Source: Candidatus Bathyarchaeota archaeon (GTDB lineage Archaea; Thermoproteota; Bathyarchaeia; Bathyarchaeales; Bathycorpusculaceae). From it: a stretch of DNA of 64,000 nucleotides. The stretch covers positions 64,001 to 128,000 of the forward strand of contig CAVYES010000005.1 in assembly GCA_963767735.1 (NCBI GenBank), written 5' to 3'. The notes under the pieces are model-generated. The model searched no databases and was not told the origin of the DNA. It saw only the letters and a program-made list of their open reading frames with translations. The first letter of the stretch is position 1. Every line of letters starts with the position of its first letter. Shown piece by piece: positions 10,218 through 51,143 of the stretch. Position numbers and translations under genes: made by a program.

Positions 10218-10293
10218 GGGCTCGTCGTCTAGTACGGATTATGACACCGGCCTGCGGAGCCGGAGGTCCTGGGTTCAAATCCCAGCGGGCCCG
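10218..10293 (+). tRNA. tRNA-Arg (anticodon GCG)
   Basis: Acceptor stem GGGCTCG/CGGGCCC, anticodon arm CCGGC-CTGCGGA-GCCGG, T arm CTGGG-TTCAAAT-CCCAG. Confidence 0.95.
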
Positions 10294-10320
10294 TCTTAAC
10301 CATTTTCCAAGGAAAAAAGA

Positions 10321-10348
10321 GGATTCGCTTAATGTTTTAAACGAATCC
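10321..10348. repeat. 28-bp imperfect palindrome (11-6-11), copy 1
   Basis: ggattcgctta-atgttt-taaacgaatcc. Confidence 0.7.
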
Positions 10349-10533
10349 TTTTGAAAAGTTAGGCTTAGAGCGCGCTATCCAAAAAAACCAAAAAGACTGA
10401 AATGATAGACCGAAAAAGCAAAACTGCCACACAATTAAAGAAACAAGAAAACACGAAAATCACTTGCAGGCAAAACCGAAAATCTCTGTTTAGAGACCAG
10501 AAAACAAAAAAACAGCACTTTACGTTGTTTGGG

Positions 10534-12258
10534 TTAGTTGAGCTTTTTCTTGCCGCGTATGAACCATGCCAAGATTACGAAGATAAACACTATGAGGATA
10601 ACGATGACTACTATGAGCCAATCAACCACACCGAAAACAGCTGCTGCCGCAGTAGCTGTCGGCGTTAGAGTAGGCGTTGGAGTTACAATAGCCGAAGCTG
10701 TGACAATTACAGCGGTAGATTGAGGCGAAGTCGCGTTTAAACTGTCAGTAACTGTTACTGTAATCGAGTAAGCCCCTGCGGATGCAGGAGCAAAACTAAA
10801 CGTGGACGCAGTCGCACTAGTCTGAACAGCTCCATCCACATACCACTGATAACTCGTGTAAGTGCCTGAACCGCCACTAGCCGTAGCATTGAACAGTTGA
10901 GACTGACCCACATCTAAAGCTGCAGTTTCAGGAGAAATAGTGACAGTCGGAGCAGCATTCACTGTAACCGTTGTAGCGGTAGATTGAGCCGAAGTGAAGA
11001 GTGAACTGTCAGTAACCGTAGCAGTAATCGAGTAAGCCCCTGCGGATGCAGGAGCAAAACTAAACGTGGACGCAGTCGCACTAGTCTGAACAGCTCCATC
11101 CACATACCACTGATAACTCGTGTAAGTGCCTAAACCGCCGCTTGGAGCAGCAGTAAACATCGTAGATTGACCCACATCCAAAGCAGCAGATTCGGGAGAC
11201 ACATTAACAGTCGGACCAGCATTCACCGTAACAGAGGTGGCTGCAGACGAAGCTGTAACTGGGATACTGGCGCTGTCAGTCACTTGAACCTCGAAACTCC
11301 ACGATCCCGTAGTCGTAGAAGCAGAAGTGTTGAAACCGTAACTGGTTTCACTGGTGGAAATTGCGCCTGAAATAGGTGAGAAACTTCCTCCAGGAGCCTC
11401 CTCAAACCACTGAAACGTATAGGGAGAAGTGCCCGTAGACACAATAGTAGAAAAAAACAAAGTGCTATTCTGACCCTGCTCAATCGTACTCTTGAAAACA
11501 GACACAGATGGAGCAACCAAAGCGGAATTTACCGTAACCGTTGCAGCGGTAGATTGAGCCGAAGTCGCGCCTGAGCTATCAGTAACCGTCGCAGTGACAG
11601 AGTACGACCCTGGGGATCCAGGAGAATAATTAAACGTGGACGCAGTCGCACCAGACTGAGACACCCCACTCACATACCACTGATAACTCGTGTAAGAACC
11701 TGAACCGCCGCTCGGAGTGGCCGTAAATGTAGTGGACTGACCCATATCCATAGTCCAAGAAGAGGGCGACACACTCACAGTCGGAGCACTCACGCTTATC
11801 ACCGAGACTGTATCGCTATCAGAATTTGTGACATAGGTATATGTGCCGCTGGGCGTAACAGCCACATCAATAGGCCCGATTCCAACGGTTATCGTCGCCG
11901 TCACAGTATTCGTGGCCGTGCTTATCACCGACACCGTACCGCTGCCAGAATTCGCAACATAGGTATATGTGCCGTTGGGCGTAACAGCCACACCGACAGG
12001 CGCGCTTCCAACTGGTACCGTCGCCGACACCGTATTCGTAGCGGTGCTAATCACCGACACTGTATTGCTGCCGTTATCTGCAACATAGGCATATGCACCG
12101 TTGGGCGTAACAGCCACACCTATAGGAAAGCTTCCAACGGTTACCGTCGCCGCATTCTGCGCTCGAACTGGCTGAGGCAATAATGCGAAAGCACAAAACA
12201 AGAAGCTGATAAGAAGGATGCAACCAACTCTCAAAGTCTTTGTTGCCCCATGCCTCAT
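10534..12258 (-). CDS. Surface protein with YVTN beta-propeller repeats, PKD/Ig-like repeats and C-terminal TM anchor
   Basis: Signal peptide; three P.GVAVTP.G.Y.YV.N repeats; repeated YTSYQWYV domains; hydrophobic C-terminus. Confidence 0.85.
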   Translation of the reverse strand: MRHGATKTLRVGCILLISFLFCAFALLPQPVRAQNAATVTVGSFPIGVAVTPNGAYAYVADNGSNTVSVISTATNTVSATVPVGSAPVGVAVTPNGTYTYVANSGSGTVSVISTATNTVTATITVGIGPIDVAVTPSGTYTYVTNSDSDTVSVISVSAPTVSVSPSSWTMDMGQSTTFTATPSGGSGSYTSYQWYVSGVSQSGATASTFNYSPGSPGSYSVTATVTDSSGATSAQSTAATVTVNSALVAPSVSVFKSTIEQGQNSTLFFSTIVSTGTSPYTFQWFEEAPGGSFSPISGAISTSETSYGFNTSASTTTGSWSFEVQVTDSASIPVTASSAATSVTVNAGPTVNVSPESAALDVGQSTMFTAAPSGGLGTYTSYQWYVDGAVQTSATASTFSFAPASAGAYSITATVTDSSLFTSAQSTATTVTVNAAPTVTISPETAALDVGQSQLFNATASGGSGTYTSYQWYVDGAVQTSATASTFSFAPASAGAYSITVTVTDSLNATSPQSTAVIVTASAIVTPTPTLTPTATAAAAVFGVVDWLIVVIVILIVFIFVILAWFIRGKKKLN

Positions 12259-12630
12259 TCTTTCACCTCACCAGTCAAAACCCTTAGCTGATGTCAGCGA
12301 AATGTCTGGAGTGTAAGTGCAAGTACGAGCTGTATCTTGCATGCCAGCCGGCGAATGAGCAAATTGATAACGAAATTAGAAAATTGATAATTACGATTCG
12401 TAGTTTCTTTATGCTTTTTTCATCCCCAAATTTCTTACTCTGCTAAGCTCTTCGTACGAATACAGATTAACCTTAACTTACATGTTAGCTGCTTATATAC
12501 GCATAACATTTGCGCTATTCACCTCATACAGATTAAGGAAGGTACCAAAAAACACACGATAAATTGTAAAAAAACATTACGCTATATGAATAAACAAACG
12601 TAACACAACCATGAAAATAGCCGCTGAATA

Positions 12631-12658
12631 GGATTCGCTTAAATAATTAAGCGCATCC
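12631..12658. repeat. 28-bp imperfect palindrome (11-6-11), copy 2
   Basis: ggattcgctta-aataat-taagcgcatcc; overlaps the att fragment. Confidence 0.7.
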
Positions 12659-12669
12659 CAGCGGGCCCG
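12655..12669 (+). repeat. att-like copy of the tRNA-Arg 3' end (15 bp)
   Basis: atcccagcgggcccg is identical to 10279-10293. Confidence 0.8.
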
Positions 12670-12734
12670 CTCCATTTTAGGTTCGGGTGTTTAAACAGTT
12701 CTATAAAGTAGTGGGTAGAGACAAACCAGCGCGC

Positions 12735-14051
12735 TTAGCTGCTTAGCGTTTGGATGTTCGCGACCTGCCCAGTGTCTGCCCATATCCCGACGCCTATGCT
12801 GTTAACTCCTCCCGGGTAGACCTTGTCGAGATACAGCGTTATGTACCAGTAAGGGACTAAGGTAAGGCCTGTTCGAGGTGTAGGATAGAACACTGCCGAG
12901 ACGGGTTCTTGAAGTACGGTGAAATTGGAAACTTGTACTCCGTTCGCTTTCCAAGTGAACGTGTTCGCCGCATCTCTGGCGATTTGAATTGCTTGGTTTT
13001 GTGTGATGTTTACTTGGGTGTTGCCGACCGAGTAGAGGGGCCAATCGTCGCTCAAAGTTGTCAGGATGCCGTTTTCATACACTATTTGGAGGCTTTTGGC
13101 GGCGAAATCAATGTTATTGTCCGTGTACAGCAGAGAGAACTGAGCATTTTCTCCGTCTAAAGAAATTTCTAGTTTGACGTTGCCCAACGTTTGGTCTTGC
13201 TGTGTTTCGGTGGCACCGGATAGAAGCTGGCTCATCTGATTCAGGTAGGAAGCATTGTCAACAGACTCGTATCTTGTTATGATTTCTCTCACCGCCGTTA
13301 AGAAGTCAGTCGGTTGACGTTGAGTGTAGATCGGGGTGAACGCTGTCACTCCTTCAATCACGTTTAGTTGAAAAAGCGAGAAGTTACCGTTCCTAAACGT
13401 TAAGACCAAGTTAATGTTGCTTGCGTTGTTCACAAGTGAGTATGTCAACACTTCCTCATTAATGCCTGGCATGTCGGCCTCGGGTCCCGAAGTGTCACTG
13501 AGAAGGGTCACTTGATATTTTGTGACATCTATCTGGAAAACGTCCTTTATGATGACCATTGCCTCGTCAGCAGAGGTGCTTCCCGAGAGCAATTGCTGAT
13601 TCTGCGATTGCACCTTTTCAAAACTAGCGCCCAAAGTGTTGTAGTCCTTAGACAGCTGATTATAAGAGGCGTATTGACCGTAGGTCATGCTTGCCAAAAT
13701 CACGATACCTATTATGAGGATTGCGTACAGCGACTTCCACCTCAAAGGAATGGACGAAAAGCTTTTCTTTTGGACTGAAGGGGCATCTTCCGCTCCCCTC
13801 ATCATTACTGCAGCGGCTTCACCGAAACTGGATAATTTGTATTTTCCGTCTTCTCTCTTCATCAATAGCTCGCCGAGGCTTTCAAGGTGATAGGTCAGAT
13901 GTGAACTTGGAATCCCGAGGTGATCAAGAATCTCCGAAAAAGTCATCGGTTTTTCCGAAAGCATCCTAAGGATTTTGCGGCGTGCTGGATGCCTCAAAGA
14001 ACTGAACATTGTTGAGTAGGTTTCTTCTTCCGATTCAGACATTTCAAGCAC
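12735..14051 (-). CDS. ArsR-type wHTH regulator with TM helix and extracellular domain
   Basis: LRHPARRKILRML..SSHLTYHLESL, then one TM segment and a long beta-rich domain. Confidence 0.8.
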   Translation of the reverse strand: MLEMSESEEETYSTMFSSLRHPARRKILRMLSEKPMTFSEILDHLGIPSSHLTYHLESLGELLMKREDGKYKLSSFGEAAAVMMRGAEDAPSVQKKSFSSIPLRWKSLYAILIIGIVILASMTYGQYASYNQLSKDYNTLGASFEKVQSQNQQLLSGSTSADEAMVIIKDVFQIDVTKYQVTLLSDTSGPEADMPGINEEVLTYSLVNNASNINLVLTFRNGNFSLFQLNVIEGVTAFTPIYTQRQPTDFLTAVREIITRYESVDNASYLNQMSQLLSGATETQQDQTLGNVKLEISLDGENAQFSLLYTDNNIDFAAKSLQIVYENGILTTLSDDWPLYSVGNTQVNITQNQAIQIARDAANTFTWKANGVQVSNFTVLQEPVSAVFYPTPRTGLTLVPYWYITLYLDKVYPGGVNSIGVGIWADTGQVANIQTLSS

Positions 14052-14229
14052 TTTGATACACTAACGTGCTCCGTTAGATTAATTTTTCTAATAAAAAACC
14101 AAATGCCCCGTTTAGTCAATAAATGCAGAATCAACTTTTGTTCAGTACATTTTTCTTGTGTCAATAAACCTTTACAAGAACCGTTTTATCGGAAAATACA
14201 CTCATGCATGAAGCGTCAGAGGAGCAGCT

Positions 14230-14601
14230 ATGAAAAGATGCGGAACTGGTCAAGTGCAAGATTTCGCTTGCGAGTGTGTAGCGCCATTAAGCTTTGAGAC
14301 GAAATGCGTTACAGTGGCGATATTCGAAAAAGAAGGAAAGACAATCCTGCAACCGCTGATAAGCGAACAAGACGCCAAAACAATCCAAGAACTGTTCCGA
14401 ACCGAAACTCTTGAAGTTTGGCTATCTAACGGCAAATCTTCCTATTCCGTTTTTGATGTCGATATACTAAGGTACAAACAAGTATCGCAACCGTTGACGA
14501 AATGCAGCAAAATCGCAAATCAAGTGTATTTGAAAAACCTGTTTGCAGGCATCGTTTCTTGTGAGCAATGCCCACTGGATGATGAAGCGGGTGGCTTGTG
14601 A
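14230..14601 (+). CDS. Hypothetical Cys-containing protein
   Basis: 123-aa ORF ending next to the following start codon. Confidence 0.55.
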   Translation: MKRCGTGQVQDFACECVAPLSFETKCVTVAIFEKEGKTILQPLISEQDAKTIQELFRTETLEVWLSNGKSSYSVFDVDILRYKQVSQPLTKCSKIANQVYLKNLFAGIVSCEQCPLDDEAGGL

Positions 14602-14602
14602 A

Positions 14603-15997
14603 ATGGCAACAATCAAAAAAGCGGTTGCAGAACGCGCGCCCAATATTGCGCTGGGGACCTTTTCGAGTCCGAGAGATAGCACACTAAACGTACTGTCAGC
14701 TATCAAAAACGCGGAAAAAAATCACGATTTCGCAGCAACGATCAAAATCTTGGATGAGGCATGCCGGAAGTGCACCCCATTAACTCCGCTCGAATGCATC
14801 TCACGATGCAAAACCTGGAAGTTGAAGAATGAGCTTAGAATACTCCATAAGAACATTGAAAACCCAGATTTCAAAAGAGACCTGATGAATGTACTGAAAA
14901 ACGACGCGCGACTGCACATTCTAATGATGATCGCTAAAGGCCACTATTCAATTCACAAGATTCAACAAGAACTCAGAAAGACGGGTCACGCACTCAGTCA
15001 AGACAACATTGTTGTAGAATACTTGCGTCCATTGCTGGAAGTTGGACTTGCCGTCGAGGCTCAAGACTGTTACTACACAACAACGTTCGGTAGAAGACTC
15101 ACAGAATTGATCGGAGGTTCAGCGAACTTAGTGAACTTGCTACCGGCTCGATCCGAATGCTACGAGGAAACTGTACTCAGAGCTTTACTCAGCGGACCCA
15201 AAACCTTTGAAGACATAAACGGGTTTGTCTCCCAGAGGGCCGTCTCGCGAATTTTAAAGAGACTGGAAACGGTGGGCTTGGTAGAAACACCAAAGGAAAG
15301 AGCTTACATATTTTTCTTCAGATCAAAACGTGACCCTACAATGGAAAAGCCTTCCTCTGCTGAGAGCAAGGTTTACAACGGCGTGCCTCACGAGGGAATT
15401 TCTGTACAAAAACTTGCCGAAAAAACAGGATTTGCGCTAAGGACAATTTACAAACTTCTGAGAGGACTGAAGGGAAAGAAGCTAGTGTTCACTAGAAAAA
15501 CGCCTAAAGCTTACCGTCTGACTGCAAAAGGCGAAAAGTTGGCTTCGCTTCTGAATGCGCTCTATATTCTGGTTGAGGAAACGCTGAGCTCCTCTGAACA
15601 AGTCTTCAAAGACAACGAAAACATAGCCCCACAGGTCTCAGGTTTGACTGCCGCCCGCTATTCAAGCATGCCAAGCGAACCAACTTTCCCAGCTGAAGAG
15701 AAGGCTGAAACGACGAGACGGTCTCAACTGGAAATGTGTGTGGATATCTTGGAGGTCTTGACTCGTGAGGGTCCGTTGAACCTGATGCGTGTTATGCAAA
15801 ATGCTAATGTCAACTGCAGCATGCTGAGGGAGTGCCTTGGCTTCTTGACTAAGCAGGGACTGGTTGAAGTTAAGGCCATTGGAAAAGAAAAAAAAGTCTA
15901 TGCGGTCACTCAACTCGGCTTGACAGTGCTTAAGCAGTTCCGCGATCTCAAAGAGGTGCTTCCCATAGTTGTAGAAACAGGAGTGCGCGCTATATGA
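14603..15997 (+). CDS. Multi-winged-helix protein with N-terminal four-Cys motif
   Basis: CRKC....LECISRC; several wHTH-like units; C-terminal RRSQLEMCVDILEVL wHTH. Confidence 0.7.
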   Translation: MATIKKAVAERAPNIALGTFSSPRDSTLNVLSAIKNAEKNHDFAATIKILDEACRKCTPLTPLECISRCKTWKLKNELRILHKNIENPDFKRDLMNVLKNDARLHILMMIAKGHYSIHKIQQELRKTGHALSQDNIVVEYLRPLLEVGLAVEAQDCYYTTTFGRRLTELIGGSANLVNLLPARSECYEETVLRALLSGPKTFEDINGFVSQRAVSRILKRLETVGLVETPKERAYIFFFRSKRDPTMEKPSSAESKVYNGVPHEGISVQKLAEKTGFALRTIYKLLRGLKGKKLVFTRKTPKAYRLTAKGEKLASLLNALYILVEETLSSSEQVFKDNENIAPQVSGLTAARYSSMPSEPTFPAEEKAETTRRSQLEMCVDILEVLTREGPLNLMRVMQNANVNCSMLRECLGFLTKQGLVEVKAIGKEKKVYAVTQLGLTVLKQFRDLKEVLPIVVETGVRAI

Positions 15998-18831
15998 GAA
16001 AATCCCTAATTCTTATCGTATCCCTAATTCTTATTTTATTGCTATCAACTTTGATAAGTTTTAGACCAACCATTCAAACGGTAAAAGCTCAACAACTGAG
16101 TCCTCAATCAATCTCAGACAACTTTAGCACGGATTCAGGTTTATGGACGTATTTAGGGAGCGCATACAGAGACCCAACCAATGATTATTTAGTCTTAACT
16201 AATTCTGGCAACGACCAAGCTGGAGTTGCCTTTTTCAATTATGCAGTTTCAAGCTCTTTTACAGCTAATTTTAGCTACTTAGTTGGTGAAGGAAACTCGG
16301 GGGATGGGTTCACCATGTTCTTCTACAAACAGCCATATTCAACATTCAGCAACGGAGGCGATTTGGGTTTCAACACTCAATATGCAATTATCCCGGGGTA
16401 TGGGATTGAATTTGATGGCTGGCAAAACATACCTGGGGATTTCCAAGACATAGCGGGAGGCGTAATGAATCCGCCAACAGGTGATCCGTCTGGCGCCTAT
16501 ATTGCATTAATACAGAATTCTGTTGGTGATCATTTAGCATATTCGGCTAATGACCCGAGAGTTGACAACAATCAGTGGCATAACGTTTCTGTGATCGTCA
16601 GAGATTCTTCTGTTAGCGTTTATGTTGACCAAGGATTAGTCCTTCAATGGACTGGGGCACTAAACACAACTTATGCAGGGTTTGGATTCAGTGGAGCTGA
16701 TGGAGAAGTTGGAAGCAACTATCACATAATAGCCAACTTTTCAATTACTGCCAATAATTTAGGAACGCCAGAACCAATTCCTACAGGAACTCCTACACCA
16801 ACTGCCAACCCCGAACAAAGCCCAGTCATTTCTTCGGTAAGCCCGATCTCCCCGACGCTAGTGCAGAATATAACCCTCCAAGGCAGCGATTTCGGAAATA
16901 TTCAGCCCCAACTTTTGAGTTTAGGTGACGGGTCAGTTGATACCGTTTGGGGTGGTTCTACGCCGAGTATCGTTATTTTAGATGAACGTAATTTACTCTC
17001 TGCTGGAGCCGCAGGTGCATGGTCTGGTTTTACAAACGGACCTCCCGACCTCATCGGTGTTGTCCTATTAAGTTGGACTAATACAGAAATAGTCTTAGGT
17101 GGCTTCGGTTCTGGCCTCGGTTCGCAGTTTTCATGGAGCCAAGTTTTGCAAGGAGATGTTTTACAAATCCAAATTCAGACTGTTAGTGGAGTTGCAACGT
17201 ACAACACTAATGCCGTTTCAAATCAATCCAATCAAAATCTCACTTCTGGCTCCACAGGAACTCCGCCTGTAATTTCTTCGGTAAGTCCAATCTCGCCGAC
17301 TCGACTGCAGACTATAACCATCAAAGGCAGCGGTTTCGAAAACACTCAGCCTCAAACGATAAGTCTTGGAGATGGCTCTGTAGATACTGTCGATGGAGGT
17401 AACACTCCTTCAATTCAAATTCGTGATAATCATCTCATTGCCGATTGGACGGCGGGGTATGGAGAAAACGGAATTGGAATTATTCTTGTAAGCTGGTCGA
17501 ATAACGAGATTGTGTTGGGCGGATTTGGGACTTTGCTCACCACAAACGGTCAGGGAAGCTATAACTTACTGCTTGGAGATCCAATTCAAATCCTAGTGAA
17601 GGCTTCGGGAACTGTGACTTCGTATAATACTGTTGTATTAGGTTCTCCAGAAAACACGAACGACACCAATAATGGTCCAGCTCCTGTTATTACCTCAGTT
17701 AGTCCCATTTCAACAGATGTATCGCAGACCATAGTTATCAAAGGCAGCGACTTTGGAAACATTCAGCCTCAAACTATGAGTCTGGGAGATGGTTCAATCG
17801 ATACCGTGGGCGGAGGCAGCACCCCGGTGATACAGATTCATGATGACAGCTGGTGCGGTTGGGAAGCAGGCACCCAGGATGGTCCAACAACAGGCGCCGA
17901 TTCGATTGGCATAATAATGGTAAGTTGGTCAGATACAAAAATTGTTCTTGGCGGCTTCGGATCCGCACTTTACACAAACGGCCAATGGAGCATTTCACCG
18001 GGAGATCCGATGCGGATAGTGGTGTTGACTTCTGGAGGAGTGTCAGTATATGATACGACTGTAACTGGAGGTTCTGGCACCTCATCAAATTCAAGCACAA
18101 CTTCTACACCAACGCCCTCAACGTCTCAGCTTGTGGTTTCTTGCCAAAGCTCCACAACAACTTCAAACTTCAGGGTTGAAATTAACGGCAATTTAACAGT
18201 CGGGTGCATTGGCATTCAAGGAGCTCTAATCTACCTCTACTATAGCATAAATGAAGGAAGCTCTTGGCAGGGCTTAACTACGGTAAACACAGATTCAGAC
18301 GGAAACTTTTTAGCAGACTGGTTGCCTTCGGTGACTGGAAACTACCTGATAAACGCTACTTACGCGGGAGACTCAACTTATCCCGGAGAGAGCACTGTAG
18401 TTACCCTTGTGGTTACCCCATATCCATCTGAGAACGCTCAAGACGTATTTTCAGTCGCGTCAAACTCTACAGTGTCAGATTTAGCGTTCAATTCCACAAG
18501 CGGACAATTAAGCTTCATCGTTAGTGGACCAAGCGGAACAACAGGTTACTCGGACGTATACATTGCCAAATCCCTCGTTAACGACATATCAACCGTCAAG
18601 GCTTACATAGATGGAAACACATTAAACTACACAGTCACGTCAACCGCTGACTCATGGATACTGCATTTCACGTACCATCACAGCACTCATGAAATAACCA
18701 TAAACCTAAACAATGCGTCCACATCAACGTTAAGCATCACGCAATTGTTGCAAGGAGTTACTTACGGAGCAATAATTAGCCTGAGCGTGATAGTTGCACT
18801 TTTGCTGATTTTAAGAAAAAGGCAGGACTAG
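15994..18831 (+). CDS. Large surface protein: L-type lectin/ConA-like domain, three IPT/TIG-like repeats, Ig-like domain, TM anchor
   Basis: GDGFTMFF..YGIEFD..WHNVSV..GFGFSGADG; three PVI(S/T)SVSPIS repeats. Confidence 0.8.
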   Translation: MRKSLILIVSLILILLLSTLISFRPTIQTVKAQQLSPQSISDNFSTDSGLWTYLGSAYRDPTNDYLVLTNSGNDQAGVAFFNYAVSSSFTANFSYLVGEGNSGDGFTMFFYKQPYSTFSNGGDLGFNTQYAIIPGYGIEFDGWQNIPGDFQDIAGGVMNPPTGDPSGAYIALIQNSVGDHLAYSANDPRVDNNQWHNVSVIVRDSSVSVYVDQGLVLQWTGALNTTYAGFGFSGADGEVGSNYHIIANFSITANNLGTPEPIPTGTPTPTANPEQSPVISSVSPISPTLVQNITLQGSDFGNIQPQLLSLGDGSVDTVWGGSTPSIVILDERNLLSAGAAGAWSGFTNGPPDLIGVVLLSWTNTEIVLGGFGSGLGSQFSWSQVLQGDVLQIQIQTVSGVATYNTNAVSNQSNQNLTSGSTGTPPVISSVSPISPTRLQTITIKGSGFENTQPQTISLGDGSVDTVDGGNTPSIQIRDNHLIADWTAGYGENGIGIILVSWSNNEIVLGGFGTLLTTNGQGSYNLLLGDPIQILVKASGTVTSYNTVVLGSPENTNDTNNGPAPVITSVSPISTDVSQTIVIKGSDFGNIQPQTMSLGDGSIDTVGGGSTPVIQIHDDSWCGWEAGTQDGPTTGADSIGIIMVSWSDTKIVLGGFGSALYTNGQWSISPGDPMRIVVLTSGGVSVYDTTVTGGSGTSSNSSTTSTPTPSTSQLVVSCQSSTTTSNFRVEINGNLTVGCIGIQGALIYLYYSINEGSSWQGLTTVNTDSDGNFLADWLPSVTGNYLINATYAGDSTYPGESTVVTLVVTPYPSENAQDVFSVASNSTVSDLAFNSTSGQLSFIVSGPSGTTGYSDVYIAKSLVNDISTVKAYIDGNTLNYTVTSTADSWILHFTYHHSTHEITINLNNASTSTLSITQLLQGVTYGAIISLSVIVALLLILRKRQD

Positions 18832-18894
18832 AACTCCACCTTCCCTAAAAGTTAGAGCTCAGGATCCAATTCTTGAGTTTCCAAAAACCCAAAA

Positions 18895-18918
18895 TGGGTT
18901 CAAATCCCAGCGGGCCCG
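18895..18918 (+). repeat. att copy of the tRNA-Arg 3' end (24/24)
   Basis: tgggttcaaatcccagcgggcccg is identical to 10270-10293; lies 75 bp before the integrase. Confidence 0.9.
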
Positions 18919-18993
18919 CTCCCTTTTGGGTTCAGGTCTACCACAACGGTTAAATGTATTCAGCCGAAAGAGGTTTTAAGGAGAAAAAAGGTT

Positions 18994-20283
18994 GTGCGCG
19001 GGAACGATTACTCGTCTCTTTTGAATGACAAAGCGGTTAAGCGTTGGCGGGATAATGTCGCCCGCGGTTCAGTGATAACTGCCGAGGTATATCTCAGGCG
19101 TTTGGGACATTTCTGTAACGATTTGAAAATTTTGCCAGGCGATCTTCTGAAGATGAGCGACGATGAGCTTTATGATTTGCTCTTGGATACGGTTTCTAAA
19201 TTGGAGGGGAAAGGATACGCCGGAAGTTATATTCACTCCACAGTGAAAGCAATTAAATCCTGGCTTATCCATAACCGAAAGGAGGTCAGAGGTAGGATTA
19301 AGATAAGAGGGGCCCAAGACACCCCCACCCTTAAAGACGAACGTGTGCCGCTCAAGAATGAACTTAAACGGATTTTTTTAGCGGGCGACGAAAAGTCGCG
19401 AACAACATGCGTACTGATGGCGCATGGAGGCCTTCGACCTGAAACCATAGGACATTATCATGGGAATGATGGATTAACACTGCGGGATCTGCCAGAACTT
19501 TGCTTCGAAAAACAAGAAATAACATTCCTCAAAGTTCCAACAATGGTAACCGTACGCCGAGAGCTCAGCAAAGCTGGACATCAATACTTCACTTTTCTAG
19601 GTCAAGAAGCTTGCGACTACTTGAAAGACTATTTGGAAGGAAGACTAAGGGAAGGAGAACAACTTACCCTCGACTCAGCCATCATCACTCCAAAACAGAA
19701 GATGAAGGCTTTCATTAGAACATCAAATGTGGGAGACGCTGTAAGACTCTGCATTAGAAAAGCTGGTTTCCCATGGCGACCCTATGTTTTAAGATGCTAT
19801 TTTGACACGCAGATGATGCTGGCCGAATCAAAGGGGTTAGTGCTTAGGGATTACAGACAGTTCTGGATGGGGCATAAGGGCGATATTGAAGGCAGATACA
19901 CGACCAACAAGCAAAGGCTGCCAGAGTCAGTTGTCGAAGATATGCGGACAGCTTACGGAAGAAGCGAAGAGTTTTTGCAGACTAAGATCAAAGAGGAAAT
20001 CAGCGAGGAAAAAGTCCGCAATAGCGTCAGCAAACAACTTTTGGTGATCGCTGGCTACAGTCAGGAAGACTTAGAAAAAATGGACATAACCTCTATGGCC
20101 GACGAAGAAATTCAGAGCCTCCTTAGGAAGAAACTGGTGGGACTGCAAGGGCCAAATGAGGGTTCCCAAAAAGTAATTAGCGTTGCTGAAGCCAACGACT
20201 TTTTGTCAAAAGGCTGGGAATACGTTGCTAAAATCTCTGATAACCAAGTAATTATCAAAATGAACCATAGCGAAAATGTCTAG
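18994..20283 (+). CDS. Tyrosine recombinase/integrase
   Basis: GLRPE, PYVLR, MGHKG, RYTT catalytic residues; intact ORF. Confidence 0.9.
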   Translation: MRGNDYSSLLNDKAVKRWRDNVARGSVITAEVYLRRLGHFCNDLKILPGDLLKMSDDELYDLLLDTVSKLEGKGYAGSYIHSTVKAIKSWLIHNRKEVRGRIKIRGAQDTPTLKDERVPLKNELKRIFLAGDEKSRTTCVLMAHGGLRPETIGHYHGNDGLTLRDLPELCFEKQEITFLKVPTMVTVRRELSKAGHQYFTFLGQEACDYLKDYLEGRLREGEQLTLDSAIITPKQKMKAFIRTSNVGDAVRLCIRKAGFPWRPYVLRCYFDTQMMLAESKGLVLRDYRQFWMGHKGDIEGRYTTNKQRLPESVVEDMRTAYGRSEEFLQTKIKEEISEEKVRNSVSKQLLVIAGYSQEDLEKMDITSMADEEIQSLLRKKLVGLQGPNEGSQKVISVAEANDFLSKGWEYVAKISDNQVIIKMNHSENV

Positions 20284-20421
20284 TTCGTTGCCCAAAATGA
20301 GGGTCAAATCTTACTTCCTAACCTGTCGCCTCGTTGCAGGCGGATTAGGTTTTAGAATGTGTAGCGAATCGGCAAGAGACGTAATTTCTAAGTAGCATAA
20401 TTCGAGGTTATTCAAAGAATT

Positions 20422-20679
20422 CTACGTTGTTGCCTTTGGCTCTTTATCCCATCGTACAGATCCTACGGCTGCGATTGGAATTAAATAGTCTTTTCCGGCG
20501 CTTTCCACTTCTACGTATGAATTTTGATATACTGATTCTTTGGTGACTATGATTTTTCCTACCAGTTCTTTCAATTGGCTGTGTTTATCTTTAAAATATA
20601 ATGTTCCAGTACCGCTTACGATTAAGCCTCGTGAAAGACACTCAATAGGCTTTTCTTTCTTTTCTTTCATACTATTCAC
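20422..20679 (-). CDS. Hypothetical protein
   Basis: ORF in tandem with two upstream minus-strand genes. Confidence 0.5.
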   Translation of the reverse strand: MNSMKEKKEKPIECLSRGLIVSGTGTLYFKDKHSQLKELVGKIIVTKESVYQNSYVEVESAGKDYLIPIAAVGSVRWDKEPKATT

Positions 20680-20717
20680 ATCTTCCGTCTTTTCAAATTT
20701 GCTCGATCAAGTTTGGA

Positions 20718-21518: not shown

Positions 21519-21543
21519 CCCCTCTACCCGATAAATACGCGGA

Positions 21544-39269: not shown

Positions 39270-39548
39270 TCAAACGAAACAATCAGAGGGAGCTAATGGG
39301 GCGTGGAGGCCGGTGTCAGCAGGTATTGAGTGTTTGAAGCTGAGTTTTTCCAGGTTGAGGCTGTCAACGAATGCGTCAATGAACCTGACGGGGTTTTCTT
39401 TGTCAACATATTTGTCGATGGTGTCTGGAAACAGCACTGTTTGGTCTCTATGGGTTCCGTTTACATGTTCGCTCATGGCTTTTCAATTGTTCTAAAGCTA
39501 GCTTTAAGCTTAACGGTAAGCGGATTATAGGACTTTTCACACAATCTG
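39270..39548 (-). mobile_element. IS1182-family remnant (left end plus transposase N-terminus)
   Basis: RDQTVLFPDTID.YV...NPVRFIDAFVDSL; IR-like end ggacttttcacacaatctg at 39530-39548. Confidence 0.75.
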
Positions 39549-39569
39549 GTTTGGGTCTGAGACCCAGCG
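39549..39569 (+). repeat. 21-bp direct repeat, copy 1 (palindromic, T-arm-like)
   Basis: gtttgggtctgagacccagcg is identical to 41893-41913. Confidence 0.85.
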
Positions 39570-41685: not shown

Positions 41686-41892
41686 CTCATTAAAAAGATA
41701 ACAATCATCTTTTAAGAAACTTGCTGTAGCTTATTGTCAACAACAACCAATATTTGTTCAAAACAAGTGGCTTGAAGAACGGCTCGTTTTTCAGCATCTT
41801 TGCTAGTGCTTAGCCGAAGGCGTTAAGATCTCCAAGCTTAAAAATTGCCATGAACGATACAGTAAATACGTCTGAATTCAGGTTCTGAACCC

Positions 41893-41913
41893 GTTTGGGT
41901 CTGAGACCCAGCG
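41893..41913 (+). repeat. 21-bp direct repeat, copy 2
   Basis: Identical to 39549-39569. Confidence 0.85.
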
Positions 41914-43827: not shown

Positions 43828-43852
43828 GGTTCAAATCCCGCCCGGTCCACCA
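43828..43852 (+). repeat. tRNA-Ala 3'-end fragment including CCA
   Basis: ggttcaaatcccgcccggtccacca. Confidence 0.8.
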
Positions 43853-44640: not shown

Positions 44641-44706
44641 TCAGCCTGGGATAATCGCCGCGTTCGCAACGCGGAAGCCGCGGGTTCAAATCCCGCTCGG
44701 TCCACT
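44641..44706 (+). pseudogene. 5'-truncated tRNA-Ala(CGC), serving as att site
   Basis: Anticodon arm CCGCG-TTCGCAA-CGCGG and T arm GCGGG-TTCAAAT-CCCGC; the 5' acceptor strand is absent. Confidence 0.8.
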
Positions 44707-44778
44707 TTCACCCCCGCCCGCCTACCTTTTGAAACCCCACAAACCCTTGAAGTAGCACTATATCTAAAAAAGAAAAGT

Positions 44779-45619
44779 TTGGCAGAAGACACAATCGAGG
44801 GATATGTAAAAAGACTAAGATTTATCGCAAAAAACACTGACATAACCAAACCCGAAACAGTCAAAGAATTTATCTTAAATCAAACCACAAGCTCAGCACA
44901 CAAAGAAGCCTTAGCAAACGCCTATGCCCATTATATTCAATGTTATGGATTAAATTGGGAAAAACCATTTTTCCACAGAGAGGAAAGACTCCCAAACGTA
45001 CCCACAACAGAACAAGTGAATACAATTATCTCAGCCTTTAAGAAAAAATACGCCACTATCTTTAGCATCTTAAGAGACACAGGATTAAGACCTTGCGAAC
45101 TCCACAGACTAACATTAAAAATGATAAACTTAGAAAATGGGACAATCACCCCGCAAACAGCCAAAAATGGCGCACCAAGAATCTTGACACTCCCCGCCCC
45201 AACCTTAGCAATGCTAAAAGAATACATTACAAGACTAAACCCGAAAATGAACGAAAGATTTTTTCCAACTACAAGAAGAATGTGCCATATCTGGGTACAT
45301 GGAAGAAATCAAGTAGCAGAGAAGCTAAAACAATCAAACTTACAAATACCGACTATACGACTTAAGACATTACTTCGCAACCATGCTATATGCAAAAACC
45401 AAAGACATACTCTTAGTAAAACAACAACTCGGACACAAAAGAATCGAACACACCCTAATCTATACACACCTAATCAACTTCAAACAAGACGAATACATCT
45501 CAAGAACTGTCCAACTCGGAACACCAACAACATTAAAAGAAATATGCGAATTAGCCGAAGCAGGCTTCACCAAATTCACCGAAATAGACGGCTACCAAAT
45601 ATTCAAAAAACCAAAATAA
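44779..45619 (+). CDS. Tyrosine integrase, C-terminal portion (indel near 45345)
   Basis: TGLRPCE, AKNG, YDLRH, LGHK, LIYTH; frame stays open upstream through the att site. Confidence 0.9.
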
Positions 45620-45701
45620 AAACTAACATAACAAAACCTCAATTTTTTATTGTGAATTCTTCGCTCACTTACAGCCACCATGTAAATTTTCGAAAGCAAA
45701 C

Positions 45702-46373
45702 TTATTGTTTGAACATCTTATTCAAAATGGATGATTTAGGTCGGGGCTTAGGTTCGGTTTCTTTAGGTCGCAAACAGCCGTAAAGAAAATCGGGAACAGT
45801 TTCTTTGAATTTTGCGTTTATTTCAATATAACTTACATTAATCAAACTATCTTCTTCTTTTAAATCAAGTTTGGGTATGAATTTAGCTATTATAACGCCT
45901 TCTTTAATCGAAGGTTTCTTCAATAGATATCTGACTCTTTCTTCTGAAATATCCTCTGTTGAAATCAAAAAGGCAAAAGATGCATTGAAAATCTCTTTGT
46001 AAATCTTAACCTGTCCAAGCATCTTTAGAGTGATTGGTACATCTTTTATTTCTGCAATTATGATTTCTTTAGGACTCTGAGGATTCTTTTGAACGTAACC
46101 TATTAAATCGGGATAAATGCCTTCAATCCGTATTATGTTAAGAGTATCGTCGTCAAATACTTGTTTCAGTTTTTCGGAGAAGACGTTCTTGCCGCCTATT
46201 ATTTCTAAATAAACACGTTCAGGCTCGTTAATGCTTAATCCCCGTTGAGGGTGATAACCCTTTTCACGGTCAAGGTAATTGCCCATAATTATGCTCAAAC
46301 TTTTCTGGATTAACTCATAATACAGTGCTTCGTTCCTTTTCTTTTGTAGCTTAACGTTTGGTTTTGAAGTCAT
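45702..46373 (-). CDS. PD-(D/E)xK nuclease-like protein
   Basis: YPDLIGY...IIIAEIK..LGQVKIY. Confidence 0.6.
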   Translation of the reverse strand: MTSKPNVKLQKKRNEALYYELIQKSLSIIMGNYLDREKGYHPQRGLSINEPERVYLEIIGGKNVFSEKLKQVFDDDTLNIIRIEGIYPDLIGYVQKNPQSPKEIIIAEIKDVPITLKMLGQVKIYKEIFNASFAFLISTEDISEERVRYLLKKPSIKEGVIIAKFIPKLDLKEEDSLINVSYIEINAKFKETVPDFLYGCLRPKETEPKPRPKSSILNKMFKQ

Positions 46374-46483
46374 TGCTAAACCCTTTCTAACTCGTTATCA
46401 AGCGTATATTAGGATTTCACTTTTTACTCTTTGTATGGAATTATGCAGAATAGCCAAAGACAGCCAAACCAAACTATTTTATA

Positions 46484-47008
46484 TTGAAAGCAATGAATAC
46501 AGGACTGGGTATAATTATGCCTCTTGAGGAAGACCTTCAACTACTAACCTTAGCGAAACTCAAGCTCTTAGCGAAAAATAATGGGGTTTCGCTGGAAAAA
46601 CCCTCTTACACGTTTGGTAAGAAGGCATACACTCCAACTAAAAAATCAGATATAATCGTAGCTCTTCTTAAATCTTCCAAGATTACAACTAAGAAGATTA
46701 AGGAAATATCTGAACCCGTTTCTAAAGAGAAGAGTGGAAAACGAAAACCAATACCAAAAGCGGTACGTGAACAGGTTTGGGACAAATATATGAAGGCAAC
46801 AGAGAGAGTCGGAAAATGTTACTGTTGCGGATGGCGACCTATCACGGATAGTGATTTTGAAGTTGGTCATAATAAGGCAGTAGCCAAAGGTGGAAGAGAC
46901 CACATTAACAATTTGAGACCTATATGTAAATCATGTAATCGTTCTATGGGCACGATGTCTATTGAGGTCTATAAAAGAAAATATCATCCGACCAATGCAA
47001 AAAACTAA
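46484..47008 (+). CDS. HNH endonuclease with N-terminal helical DNA-binding segment
   Basis: RKPIPKAVREQVW..CYCC..EVGHNKAVAKGG..NNLRPICKSCN. Confidence 0.9.
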   Translation: MKAMNTGLGIIMPLEEDLQLLTLAKLKLLAKNNGVSLEKPSYTFGKKAYTPTKKSDIIVALLKSSKITTKKIKEISEPVSKEKSGKRKPIPKAVREQVWDKYMKATERVGKCYCCGWRPITDSDFEVGHNKAVAKGGRDHINNLRPICKSCNRSMGTMSIEVYKRKYHPTNAKN

Positions 47009-47096
47009 AACGAAACAGGTTAAAGACTAAAGGGTGGGTGTCTAAACGTGGAAGTGCTAAATAGCAAGAATCTTGAGCAAATAGAAGAGAGAACAA

Positions 47097-47534
47097 ATGA
47101 AACGCATCATATTAGTTGACGGAAACAATTACATCTACTTTACGAGCCTTCGAATGAAAAATTCTGACTTCGGTAATATACTTGTGACTACAAAGGAAGA
47201 ATCAAAGGCAATAGAATATTATCTAATTACAGCGTGGGAATTGATTCAAAAATTTGAGAAAGGATGGTTAGACTTAGTATCGGAACATTGTTCAAAAGGA
47301 GAGTCGCCATTTCAGGACACAGTTGATTTAACAGGAATAGTCACAGTGATGTCAGAAAAGGAAATAATTGAACTTGCTAAAAAAATAAAACAAAATCCAA
47401 GAGATACAAATGAAATTATCAATCAAACTATTGGTGAAATAAAGCAGAAAAAACGTCTATTGAAACAACAGCCACTACAACAACCACTACAAAATCAACT
47501 ACCAAAAAAAAGTTTTTGGAAAAGATTAACCTGA
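47097..47534 (+). CDS. Hypothetical protein
   Basis: 145-aa ORF. Confidence 0.55.
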   Translation: MKRIILVDGNNYIYFTSLRMKNSDFGNILVTTKEESKAIEYYLITAWELIQKFEKGWLDLVSEHCSKGESPFQDTVDLTGIVTVMSEKEIIELAKKIKQNPRDTNEIINQTIGEIKQKKRLLKQQPLQQPLQNQLPKKSFWKRLT

Positions 47535-47653
47535 AAAGAAGGAAAGTGAAACTGACAAAAATCAATTTTTCATTTGATTGAATAATTACTTAATTTTTGG
47601 ATAGCTTAGATTTCCAAAGTGAAAAGTTTTGTTACCTGAAAACTAACACTATT

Positions 47654-47687
47654 GGAGGCGTCGCTTGCGCTTCGCGCTCGCTCCGCT
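47654..47687. other. GC-rich hairpin-forming stretch, possible RCR origin element
   Basis: ggaggcgtcgcttgcgcttcgcgctcgctccgct in AT-rich DNA just downstream of rep. Confidence 0.35.
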
Positions 47688-47752
47688 ATTGCCATACAAA
47701 ACGCAAAAGCCAAACGATATGCAAACCGCAAAAAGTTTTCTTTTAAGATAAG

Positions 47753-48940
47753 TTACCAATCATATTGGTGCTTTTTTAAATCAGGCGCAAGAAGCCAAAC
47801 GCATTCTCCATTCTCATAGAGAGAAGCCCAAAAATTAGTTTTATAATCGCTCTTCATAGGATTATGCTGAAAAACTTCAAACCCAAAGTATCGAGCAGGC
47901 TCAAGCTCATGCTTACATAAAGGACAAAGTAACTTGCGGGATTCATAGGTTATATGTAAACGCCTATAACTTAGCGAACCGAACCAGACAAACCCTCGTG
48001 CACGACTCTTAATAATAGAAGCGGAAATACTCATTTACCGTGCCCCCTTCCTAATCGCCATATGCGATAATTGATACCAAGCCGTGGCAAAAACAGACCT
48101 ACGCTCATCAGTCACCTTAATGATGTAGTGGTGCTTTTCGAAGCTCTGCCTTACTCGATTCTCGAAACCGTCACATGAAGCACAAAAACGGCTGTCACCA
48201 TGTTTCTTAACAATCTTGCCCCCACCTGTACGATAAACCTTCTCAGTCTCAGAGCAATGTCGGCACTTCCCATAACCGCCCTCAATAAAACCGAGAATAT
48301 GCATATGTGGAGACCAATAAAACCCGTATGGAACACCTTTCTCTAACGACTCAGAATAATCAGCGAACCTAAAGCCGTGGAAACAAAAACCACCATTAAT
48401 AATCCCTACCTCAGCAACTATCAAGCGCCACTTTTTGCACCATTTTTCATGCTCAAACTCAGCCAAAAAATAATCAGACTGAGGCGCAGAAACAATAATG
48501 TGCTGAGGCTCACCCAACGGTGCATGATAAATATCCTTATCATCCTTCCCGCCCACAGAAGCCTTCTCAACACGCTGAGAAATATGCTCAGCCTCGCGTA
48601 AACAAGCGCCTTTTAAATAACAGATAGGACAGGCATAAGAATGGCACCAAGTATGGACCATATGAACATAGACCTCTCCACCATGACTTACACCTAAAAG
48701 GTCAGCTTGAGAGTGCAATTCGACTCGGTTACAAATATCGTGCCTTCTCCATTGACCACAATTACTGTTAGTCTTCTCGCCATGACCGACAACAATCCAG
48801 TCGCCATGCTCAAAATGGAAGATACGTGAATTTCCCATATCTTCATTCAATTGCTCGTAAGCCGAATAGTCACGCCACTTAGCCTCAATATCCTCATATT
48901 TGGGAAAATAGGCATCACGACTCAATATCTTTACCCCCAA
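47753..48940 (-). CDS. Rolling-circle replication initiator (HUH endonuclease) with in-frame TAA at 48035-48037
   Basis: Motif I QHIIVS, motif II SPHMHILG, motif III WYQLSH; C-terminal WFGSLSY..CPLC continues in the same frame. Confidence 0.8.
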
Positions 48941-49034
48941 ACTTCTCAGCTTGTCGCATGTGAATCATCGATAAGCTCTTAAGGCTAAATCTTACATAAA
49001 CAGTAAAGTAAGTGTACCAATTCGGAAACCCAAA

Positions 49035-49535
49035 ATGAAAGAACAAATTGACGATAACAAAATTCAAAAAGAAATAGACGCTATCTTTACCAATTACCAT
49101 AAAAAAATTAAGGAAAAAAAAGCCAATTATCGTAATAACTTAGACGACAAATACTGCAAAAAAATATACGACAAACTTCTTGCAGAAGCCGCATTAAAAA
49201 AACAAATTATTCGCCCAAAATTTAGACACAACGAAATATACAACCTAGTAAAAAACGAAATGTCAAAAACAACCTTTGAATCGCATCTCGAACACCTAGG
49301 GCAAAAAAGATTCATAGCCAAAAGAAGCAAGACAAAATACAATACATCCTATCAGATTAACGTTTCAAACGAACCTAAAGTAATCCAATTACGAAGAACA
49401 ATCTTAGGCAAGCAAAAATTAGAATTAGTTGGCATTACAAAACTAAAAAAAGGAGTTTTTTATTTGCCTCCAAACCTTAAACTTGCACCTGCATCGGACA
49501 TACCACCAAACGAAAGATTATTTTACAAAGATTAG
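49035..49535 (+). CDS. wHTH protein divergent from rep
   Basis: FRHNEIYNLV..MSKTTFESHLEHL..FIAK. Confidence 0.65.
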   Translation: MKEQIDDNKIQKEIDAIFTNYHKKIKEKKANYRNNLDDKYCKKIYDKLLAEAALKKQIIRPKFRHNEIYNLVKNEMSKTTFESHLEHLGQKRFIAKRSKTKYNTSYQINVSNEPKVIQLRRTILGKQKLELVGITKLKKGVFYLPPNLKLAPASDIPPNERLFYKD

Positions 49536-49809
49536 ATTGAAGCAATCCACGGAATTCTAAGCAGACGCTTTTTTATAAAAAGCTTGGCAAAAAAGAATTA
49601 CTCTATGTCTGCACAAGAGTAATCAGAAAGCCCGTTTTGGCGCCCAAGACCCAAAAAATCAACACCCAACAACAGACACCGAACGGTAAAGCAAAAACAC
49701 CTCAGGTAGCGAGTACACCTCCCTAAAGGGCAGCCCCCCTCGCACCCAAGGACTCTGTTTTTGCGCTACAAAAAACTTTTAATGAAAAATAGACCACATA
49801 ACAAGCTGT

Positions 49810-50661
49810 ATGTCACATTCAGATTTTCAGATGCGGAAACATGAGCTTGAGAAATTGTCAAGTCTGTTTAAAAGCAAAGGTTATGCCACAACTGCCAAAG
49901 AAATTGAATCTTTTATTGAACTCTTGAAGCATCCATTCGAACTCTCAGATTTTCTAAAGAAACTGGAAGCCCTATTAAATATGTTCGAAACAGAATTCGT
50001 ATCTGGTTTTCCAATAGGGCAACAATTTCGAAAAGATAACTATGAACAAACAAAGAAACTCATATTCGAAGCTATAAATAGACTCGGAGTTGATTTTTCT
50101 AAATCTCAAAGTTCGATTCTTCCCTTAATTGAAAGAGTTGGAAAAGCAAAAATGACGTATGGCTTCATAGCTGATGAACTACATAAACAAACAATAAAAA
50201 ATGAAAATGTTATCTTTCATCTTTATTGTTATTCTTATTTAATTTTTGTAGAAGGAATATTTGATGAACTGTCTCGAATTCTTTACTTTTTTGATAAAGT
50301 ATCACCAACCAACAAACCGACGACTGAAGACTTGGAGAGATTGTCTGTTCAACACATAGCTGAACACTGTAGAATGAAGATGATTGTTTTTCAAAACTGG
50401 GCTGATAAAAAACATATACGAAATTCCATAGGACATGCTCTCGCTCAATTCGATTCTTCCAAAAAAATGGTGCGTTTTATTGACCGTGACCCTCAGACTG
50501 GAAAAATAACTTATGATAGCGGTGTTATCCCTTTCCAGAAATTTATGGAAATGGCGCTCGAACTTGAGGATTCTTTGAGTAGTTTTACATACATCTTAGT
50601 GTTGTTGAAAATATTTGACTTCGTTATTTCCTCAAATCCAATGGGTAAATCAAAAGAGTAG
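49810..50661 (+). CDS. Hypothetical protein with HEPN-like Rx4H motif
   Basis: Helical protein with FVEG and IRNSIGH. Confidence 0.55.
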   Translation: MSHSDFQMRKHELEKLSSLFKSKGYATTAKEIESFIELLKHPFELSDFLKKLEALLNMFETEFVSGFPIGQQFRKDNYEQTKKLIFEAINRLGVDFSKSQSSILPLIERVGKAKMTYGFIADELHKQTIKNENVIFHLYCYSYLIFVEGIFDELSRILYFFDKVSPTNKPTTEDLERLSVQHIAEHCRMKMIVFQNWADKKHIRNSIGHALAQFDSSKKMVRFIDRDPQTGKITYDSGVIPFQKFMEMALELEDSLSSFTYILVLLKIFDFVISSNPMGKSKE

Positions 50662-50676
50662 GATACGCTAAAAGCA

Positions 50677-51057
50677 CAGAAGTAACTCTTGTATCGTGCA
50701 AAAGCGCCAGTATAAAGCTTATAACTAGAGAGTAACAATAACAATACAGGGATTAAAATGAGTAAACAACCAAACCCCAAGAAATTAGATAGGCTAATTG
50801 AGGCAGAAGTAACTCTTGTATCGTGCAAAAGCGCCAGTATAAAGCTTATAACTAGAGAGTAACAATAACAATACAGGGATTAAAATGAGTAAACAACCAA
50901 ACCCCAAGAAATTAGATAGGCTAATTGAGGCAGAAGTAACTCTTGTATCGTGCAAAAGCGCCAGTATAAAGCTTATAACTAGAGAGTAACAATAACAATA
51001 CAGGGATTAAAATGAGTAAACAACCAAACCCCAAGAAATTAGATAGGCTAATTGAGG
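50677..51057 (+). repeat. Three tandem copies of a 127-bp unit
   Basis: Units start at 50677, 50804 and 50931 and appear identical; each has a TATA-like box and ATG AGT AAA CAA. Confidence 0.95.
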
Positions 51058-51143
51058 CGGGTTCAAATCCCGCCCGATTCACTTCAGCCATAGAAATGGT
51101 TTCTGTAGAGTGTTTTTCCCGAGTTTTTCTTCTCCCGGATTAA
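51012..51143 (+). CDS. Putative integrase N-terminal fragment crossing the att site
   Basis: MSKQPNPKKLDRLIE-AGSNPAR reads the att repeat in the same frame as the integrase at 44680. Confidence 0.6.
   Translation: MSKQPNPKKLDRLIEAGSNPARFTSAIEMVSVECFSRVFLLPD

Follow-up and report, generated by a model that had tools for sequence, protein, structure and literature searches.

Successive integration of mobile elements at one site, with loss of the integrase gene after integration, is known from archaea (PMC8371274 and PMC6563490). Here we describe a locus of this type in a 64,000-nucleotide (nt) stretch of Bathyarchaeia DNA, hereafter the window, which is C5:64001-128000 of the source genome G000 (3.04 Mb in 10 contigs). 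As in archaeal tandem integration at a single tRNA gene, an intact gene, tRNA-Arg(GCG), stands at one end and direct repeats of its 3' end lie between the units. A tyrosine integrase gene adjoins one attachment (att) copy, and some units appear to have lost theirs. We think it likely that the locus is a tandem stack of tRNA-targeting integrative elements, mostly decayed, in which the same-strand tRNA-tail copies are hybrid att joints. It differs from the known archaeal cases in its Bathyarchaeia host, in combining at least three att specificities (Arg, Ala and Pro-like) in one region, and in the displacement of its ancestral flank to another contig. The mechanism, tandem integration and then decay, is established knowledge, and the locus is an ordinary accretion array of integrative elements and their remains.

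Other systems share parts of this picture. She et al. in 2001, and She, Chen and Chen in 2004, reportedly described gene capture in archaeal chromosomes by SSV-type integrases, whose gene is split on insertion. As in that model, tRNA-inserted elements have become fixed and are decaying, and tRNA-derived repeats surround captured genes. Unlike the SSV-type (type I) arrangement, the att copy here ends 75 nt before an unsplit integrase frame of 429 codons, which is the pNOB8-type layout. The streptococcal ICESt1/ICESt3 family is said to grow by accretion and to yield cis-mobilizable elements (CIMEs), whose mobilization in cis or in trans has reportedly been shown by experiment. Like CIMEs, which are made by insertion into an att copy, our integrase-less units are att-flanked and lie beside an integrase-bearing element; unlike them, they belong to another domain of life and to another integrase family and are known from sequence alone.

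The original prediction had likened the locus to an integron. It does combine a tyrosine recombinase with units lined up between repeated recombination sites. Integron attC sites are imperfect palindromes with conserved R and L boxes, whereas the separators here are tRNA 3' ends and none of them is attC-like. In an integron the integrase adjoins attI and an outward cassette promoter (Pc) where the array starts; here neither attI nor Pc is present beside the integrase, and 8.7 kb of array, including two units, come before it. Integron cassettes are mostly single genes that lack promoters and share one orientation. Each unit here has 1-12 genes, which lie on both strands, and there are ArsR, PadR, BlaI and Lrp regulators among them. 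Hence, we do not regard the array as integron-like. Recombination between tRNA genes driven by integrases is described in Thermococcales (PMC5495485) and could explain both the displaced right flank and the mixture of Arg-, Ala- and Pro-type joints; unlike in that case, no reciprocal hybrid joints were identified in this 10-contig genome. Large genomic islands are described in Bathy-6 genomes, and tRNA-tail arrays are not mentioned in the available part of that account (PMC11697101).

We called tRNAs with ARAGORN and Rfam and compared proteins with Pfam, NCBIfam and PHROGs. Gene content in the window is archaeal (class I lysyl-tRNA synthetase; HVO-type and TrmB-type winged helix-turn-helix (wHTH) domains), and tRNA-Arg(GCG) is its sole whole tRNA. 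The array begins at this gene:

10218-10293, + strand: tRNA-Arg(GCG); the attachment core is its last 13-24 nt (10270-10293)
10294-12654: unit E1, 2.36 kb, without integrase, between tRNA-Arg and the 12655 att copy
12655-12669, + strand: att copy, 15/15 against the tRNA-Arg 3' end
12670-18894: unit E2, 6.2 kb, without integrase, between the 12655 and 18895 att copies
18895-18918, + strand: att copy, 24/24 against the tRNA-Arg 3' end
18919-33613: unit E3, 14.7 kb, between the 18895 and 33614 att copies
18994-20283, + strand: E3 integrase, 429 codons, unsplit, starting 75 nt after 18918
33614-33649, + strand: decayed att copy, 20/24 against the tRNA-Arg 3' end, with truncated arm TTCCCATTTTGG
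33650-39548: unit E4, without integrase, ending at the joint 39549-39569

The three Arg-type copies had been predicted, and we recovered each match. The repeats far exceed chance: the terminal 24-mer of tRNA-Arg, with up to 4 mismatches, occurs 3 times in the window and not once in 100 shuffles. The window has 8 occurrences of the 11-mer GGTTCAAATCC, where 0.07 would be expected; 7 of them are on the + strand between 10272 and 51060, and all tRNA-tail copies in the array are on that strand. Perhaps such fragments are simply scattered over the genome, an outcome that would have undermined the original prediction? Genome-wide we counted 44 of these 11-mers, 25 of them outside ARAGORN tRNA calls. 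Nineteen of the 25 are indeed spread over both strands elsewhere, and some of these may be tRNAs that ARAGORN overlooked, but the other 6 fall within the 41 kb of the array (1.3% of the genome), all on the + strand.

The sequences next to the copies also agree. Positions 12655-12688 and 18904-18937 are 91% alike across 34 nt, as expected from the downstream flank that the two copies had been said to share, and a truncated form of the flank common to 12670 and 18919 is found 3' of 33637. CCA follows none of the internal tRNA-Arg 3'-end copies in the window, which should be the picture expected of hybrid joints between stacked elements. The tRNA-Arg gene itself is followed by TCTTAACC in the place where relatives have CCA. 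We also noted a perfect 8-bp palindrome, CGGGCCCG, in the core; it forms the acceptor-strand part, at 10286-10293 and in each Arg-type copy. A further orphan Arg-like tail, with 3 mismatches and then a family-type arm CTCCGATTTTTGGGTTC, lies at G000:C7:89510-89560.

Comparison of this locus across relatives had been proposed as a check, and we examined the DNA 3' of tRNA-Arg in nine related genomes. The left flank (1466-9258) and tRNA-Arg are kept in the genus at 70-89% identity. In 6 of the 9 (G002, G003, G004, G012, G013 and G018), tRNA-Arg is followed by DNA matching contig C6 of the source genome from about 4633-4741 onward; in the other 3 (G008, G011 and G016) it is followed by other regions. 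The site is empty in G004, G013 and G002, with the tRNA and CCA abutting the C6-like flank. In G003 and G012, tRNA-Arg and the flank are separated by 2.6 kb, with no repeat. G018 has a different 5.5-kb element there, bounded by tRNA-Arg and a 44-nt exact copy of the tRNA 3' part, and its 'archaeal phage integrase' (PF16795, E 1.2e-31) has a frame that overlaps the 44-nt copy. An empty site or other elements thus begin exactly at the tRNA 3' end, and we conclude that elements of this Bathyarchaeia genus integrate preferentially at the tRNA-Arg(GCG) 3' end, a hotspot. In the source genome the outer att copy is at C6:4634-4646, where the exact 13-mer CCCAGCGGGCCCG is followed by CCA and the ancestral flank and is preceded by a 24-nt arm identical to that before 12655. 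Positions 20001-60000 of the window and the next 20 kb gave only scattered matches, mostly of low identity, in the 5 closest genomes.

A tyrosine integrase that is still intact lies in E3, about 75 nt behind the att copy of this unit, and belongs to a widespread archaeal family. We scored 7983 candidates and found 2699 homologues at E<=0.001; their source names are integrase or XerD, a precomputed PF00589 match is present in 14 of the 120 listed, and relatives carry Bathyarchaeia or Bathyarchaeota names in public records. A scan of one genome per species yielded 291 loci, in records of Bathyarchaeia, Hadarchaeota, Thermoplasmata, Methanomassiliicoccales, Nitrososphaeria, DPANN and Asgard. We retained 80 of these, 76 with at least 100 nt upstream. 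A same-strand T-loop-like motif lies 50-190 nt upstream of the integrase in 69 of the 76, against 237 of 5000 random stretches, and a GGTTCAGAACC-like dyad lies 3' of the tRNA end in 37 of 69 loci, against 39 of 5000 controls. A whole tRNA precedes the integrase in 47 of 68 loci, a T-arm-like piece only in 17 (some of which may be overlooked tRNAs), and neither in 4. The anticodons are those of Arg, Pro, Ala, Gly, Met, Val, Lys, Trp, Leu, Ser, Glu and Ile tRNAs. Family integrases are nearly always found 70-100 nt behind a tRNA 3' end.

The flank common to 12670, 18919 and 33638 (ctcc.tttt.ggttc.ggt) is the integrase-proximal arm conserved in this family. The arm at 18919 is nearly identical to those behind tRNA-Arg(CCG) in G001 and behind fragments in G012 and in G018:C53. 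We found no description of it in the portions of the literature on Bathyarchaeia, integrases and tRNA that were available. Another motif, the right-arm sequence GACTTTTCACACAGTCTG, was dropped as a family-wide hallmark: it is present in 3 of 80 integrase loci and is local to the genus at best.

E3 is a genuine element, and its genes have relatives beside family integrases elsewhere (80% identity over 266 amino acids (aa) in L043; others in L037, L038 and L044). It contains the following:

18919-18938: arm CTCCCTTTTGGGTTCAGGTC
20422-27929: element genes whose relatives adjoin the same integrase family elsewhere
24368-25492, - strand: insertion sequence (IS) transposase
28248-28268, + strand: T-arm-like 21-mer GGGTTCAAATCCATAGAGACC, not Arg-type
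28690-33254: BlaR1-like peptidase, two BlaI-like repressors and a MacB-type ATP-binding cassette (ABC) pair

The 21-mer at 28248 had been taken for an Arg-type copy. Its 12 exact bases are there; the motif is a separate one of 21 nt, without a tRNA match in this genome. Three E3 open reading frames of exactly 374 codons were considered as paralogues and rejected, there being no likeness among them. The BlaR1-like peptidase/BlaI-like repressor block at 28690-30475 has a paralogous block at 62401-64000, the window end, with 70-79% DNA likeness.

E1, E2 and E4 lack an integrase. Their features are:

10320-10348: E1 hairpin GGATTCG..CGAATCC
10534-12258, - strand: E1 PKD/beta-propeller surface protein gene, the sole E1 gene
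12631-12654: E1 right arm AGGATTCGCTTAAATAATTAAGCG, which recurs with the core at G000:C6:4607-4646
12670-12689: E2 left arm CTCCATTTTAGGTTCGGGTG
12735-14051, - strand: E2 ArsR-type HTH protein
14543-15997, + strand: E2 multi-wHTH protein
15994-18831, + strand: E2 945-aa lectin-like protein
within 33650-39548: E4 CAAX-protease fragment
35037-36833: E4 ABC-2 exporter
37171-37737: E4 PadR
39420-39548: E4 right end, with arm GACTTTTCACACAATCTG at 39531-39548

The hairpin seen in E1, followed by TTTT, has three occurrences (10320-10348; L050:2853-2888; L036:19677-19710): it stands right behind tRNA-Arg genes in two species and was also seen joined to a copy of a tRNA-Arg tail. An element-borne terminator or a binding site may be its role.

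The original prediction held that integrase-less cassettes were stacked in trans. Loss of the integrase after insertion explains the units at least as well. E2 (from 12670) and E4 (from 33638) keep only 20 and 12 nt, respectively, of an arm of about 75 nt, and such short remnants fit deletion of the integrase after insertion. A tblastn search (E up to 10) around 12670 and 33638 brought up no trace of a lost integrase. On the tandem-stack reading, each element would have entered by recombining within the 13-nt core, its target being the tRNA or else an att copy that a previous element had left behind. E1, E2 and E4 would have lost the integrase by deletion or never had one. IS insertion, elements of other specificities (tRNA-Ala, tRNA-Pro-like) and a larger rearrangement may then have shaped the approximately 75 kb from the tRNA to G000:C5:149214.

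E4 ends at a joint of a different kind. Its right end is, over 101 nt, 94% alike to an element right end at G000:C8:2683-2783, and two sites follow:

39549-39569, + strand: loop-variant T-arm GTTTGGGTCTGAGACCCAGCG, then CCTCGCCA, nearest to the tRNA-Pro(GGG)/Arg tail
41881-41913, + strand: dyad GGTTCTGAACC, then a second loop-variant 21-mer

Loop-variant copies had been predicted at 39549 and 41893, and we found an identical 21-mer at both, with the dyad upstream at 41893. A joint similar to that at 39549 occurs at G000:C7:197795, 860 nt behind tRNA-Pro(GGG). The 39549 copy is therefore an attR-type joint that retains the element's own version of the T-arm, and the exchange must fall 3' of the loop, within CCCAGCG... 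The original prediction had also read the sites as older and more decayed with distance from the tRNA. Two results speak against a clean gradient of this kind: the outermost joint, on C6, has the exact 13-mer, and the loop-variant and Ala-type sites belong to other element types.

We then turned to metagenomes. The public runs X1-X20 are contigs from soil, sediment and peat, of which we aligned four to 9001-29000. Runs X1-X20 contain at most 0.39 of the sampled words, and we therefore make no statement on habitat. X4 and X6 contain E2 at 92-97% likeness and almost none of 19006-29000. In one X6 contig, CCTGGGTTCAA stands immediately before 12655 and the match continues for 614 nt of E2. The neighbor of E2 in that strain is therefore a longer piece of the tRNA, if not the whole tRNA. 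These data fit E1 and E3 being later additions that flank an older E2. If so, insertion is not confined to the tRNA. A joint from 10284 to 18895 in X6, the sole joint between att copies, was set aside because its shorter side is only 22 letters long and its depth differs.

Several observations weigh against the tandem-stack reading. The ancestral right flank is on contig C6 and not on C5, so that the array is unclosed within C5. Core DNA begins again on C5 only near 149214, with a tRNA-Val whose distance from tRNA-Arg is 208 kb in G003, a genome in one contig. The locus is thus rearranged, and its accessory DNA spans about 75 kb. No tRNA of the source genome accounts for the copy at 41893. The 28248 motif has no matching tRNA in that genome and no twin in the fetched loci, and its twin at G000:C4:354546 (- strand) is alike over only about 33 nt. 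In the runs, the right border of E2 is resolved to about 100 nt, the longest X6 piece matching up to 18819, and one X6 contig, which departs from the window after 18918, differs in depth and could stem from another tRNA-Arg gene. We found no excision product or circular joint linking two att copies with at least 30 letters on both sides, in a search of contigs, which are blind to rare forms. E1, with its well-formed ends and single gene, would also fit a non-autonomous element.

The remaining points of this kind concern the integrase (P0001). It matched no Pfam family at E<=0.001, PF00589 included, and nothing in NCBIfam or PHROGs at the thresholds used. In a profile search of solved structures archaeal XerA came out best, weakly (E 0.024), and the AlphaFold model has a mean predicted local distance difference test (pLDDT) score of 69, falling below 50 at residues 262-307. 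In favor of the reading, R148, K193, Y264, R267, H294 and Y302 are invariant across 24 integrase sequences, and in an alignment to XerA the GLR and YVLR motifs pair with GLR and HQLR. The catalytic set of tyrosine recombinases, R..K..H/Y-x-x-R..H/W..Y, thus appears to be present, with roles that we presume from the XerA alignment. Foldseek gave 8 matches for the model at E<=0.001, each of them to XerA or to VchIntIA, the integron integrase (best 3.1e-6), with low TM-scores of 0.24-0.44; they point to a predicted two-domain recombinase fold.

Could the locus instead be a platform for cassettes, in which E1, E2 and E4 are non-autonomous, consist of cargo with att ends only, and are inserted, excised and reshuffled in trans by resident or passing integrases? 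Such units would be similar to CIMEs or to the cassettes of integrons. The 2.36 kb of E1 hold one gene and carry a 15-nt repeat plus a 13-nt subterminal repeat at both ends. Most of it (10335-11668) is uncovered in X6, and several X4 contigs diverge exactly at 12630, 12664 and 12671. The family arm adjoins the att copy in both E2 and E4, and 2 of 68 integrase loci (L027 and L048) have an extra exact 14-nt copy upstream that encloses an interval without integrase. However, that arm is the short remnant described above. The E2 right end matched nothing, and the two-gene core of E2 (12732-15982) recurs at 87% likeness in G018:C38, where no att sites bound it. All strain differences can be explained if only E1 and E3 moved, internal deletion would give the identical picture, and the lack of any circular or excised form in the metagenome contigs counts here as well. 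We regard this account as rather unlikely. Its narrower form, that att copies inside the stack stay active and that the small integrase-less units, above all E1 with its two hairpin-bearing ends, are non-autonomous and are inserted, excised and swapped in trans by family integrases, is still doubtful. If it were true, Bathyarchaeia would exchange surface and transport genes as cassettes at the tRNA-Arg locus.

The copies might also be debris, remnants of tRNA genes duplicated or broken by ordinary rearrangement with no site-specific integration. The 19 T-loop 11-mers outside tRNA calls on both strands, and the rearranged state of the locus, would agree with this. Yet every copy in the array is a 3' end on a single strand, an integrase follows one of them at the family-typical distance, the flanks are conserved arms present in other genomes, and relatives have clean empty sites. 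Hence, we consider debris very improbable. Misjoining of the metagenome-assembled contig at short repeats is scarcely credible: there are 10 contigs, two of which start within the same 4.6-kb repeat, and the lysyl-tRNA synthetase gene is in two frames, but the att repeats are merely 15-24 nt, X1 contigs match 10169-10434 without differences, and X6 bridges 12655.

The copy of that 4.6-kb repeat at G000:C6:1-4586 shares 98% identity with the one at C5:1-4588 and 88% with the one at C5:134814-139432. The repeat contains a RadA/Rad51-like fragment and a 476-codon frame weakly matching integrase models, and a tRNA-Pro-like tail (CCAGCGGCC.CACCA) closes it. One and the same base of it is the start of two contigs. 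We tried a simple inversion between tRNA-Arg and tRNA-Val as an explanation of the displaced flank; the contig layout is incompatible with one inversion.

Beyond E4, tRNA-Ala replaces tRNA-Arg as the source of the copies. The predicted Ala-type copies at 43828, 44641 and 51057 were all matched to tRNA-Ala(CGC):

43828-43852, + strand: tRNA-Ala(CGC) 3'-end copy, 25/25 including CCA against the genome's own gene on contig C2
43949-44589, + strand: MNT-HepT (nucleotidyltransferase/HEPN) toxin-antitoxin pair
44641-44705, + strand: diverged 65-nt 3' part of tRNA-Ala(CGC), the att copy adjoining the second integrase
44706-51056: Ala-type element, 6.3 kb, between Ala-type copies
44779-45783, + strand: classical tyrosine integrase of the Ala-type element (integrase end c.45560), in two frames with a shift near 45320-45345
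46484-47008: HNH endonuclease in the Ala-type element
51057-51083, + strand: Ala-type att copy, a 20-nt match and then degenerate

The copy at 44641-44705 scores 30.2 bits in Rfam (threshold 29); its differences lie in the D loop and in a single base of the T stem. No tRNA-Ala gene is present in the window, and the Ala-type joints therefore came by rearrangement or inside another element. A single Arg-linked integrase had been predicted. The window has two integrase genes, not one, and the second belongs to the Ala-type sites. Class I lysyl-tRNA synthetase is also in two overlapping frames (7613-8860 and 8844-9275), either through a real frameshift in an essential gene or through an assembly indel error; assembly indel errors are therefore possible for the integrase at 44779 too.

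Pfam and PHROGs gave no support for the earlier labels 'sensor', 'VOC' and 'RCR element'. In 44706-51056 only the HNH endonuclease was matched in these databases, with no Rep or other replication protein. Three perfect 127-nt tandem repeats at 50677-51057 stop exactly at the start of the Ala-type att copy; they are either a very recent triplication of the element right end or an iteron-like array. Further along, 53301-61380 holds the tail module of a head-tailed provirus, with tail-completion, tape-measure-like and concanavalin-type lectin-domain (Laminin_G_3) proteins. No head genes were recognized there, and a relative occurs in G018:C29 at 76-87% identity.

Bathyarchaeia are abundant and mostly uncultured, and their gene acquisition is poorly described; this locus offers a worked example. 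Within a genus, elements of at least three kinds have used a single tRNA tail. The locus also delineates an integrase family that escapes standard domain models, and the conserved DNA arm of that family can serve to locate where such elements end in the genomes of other archaea.

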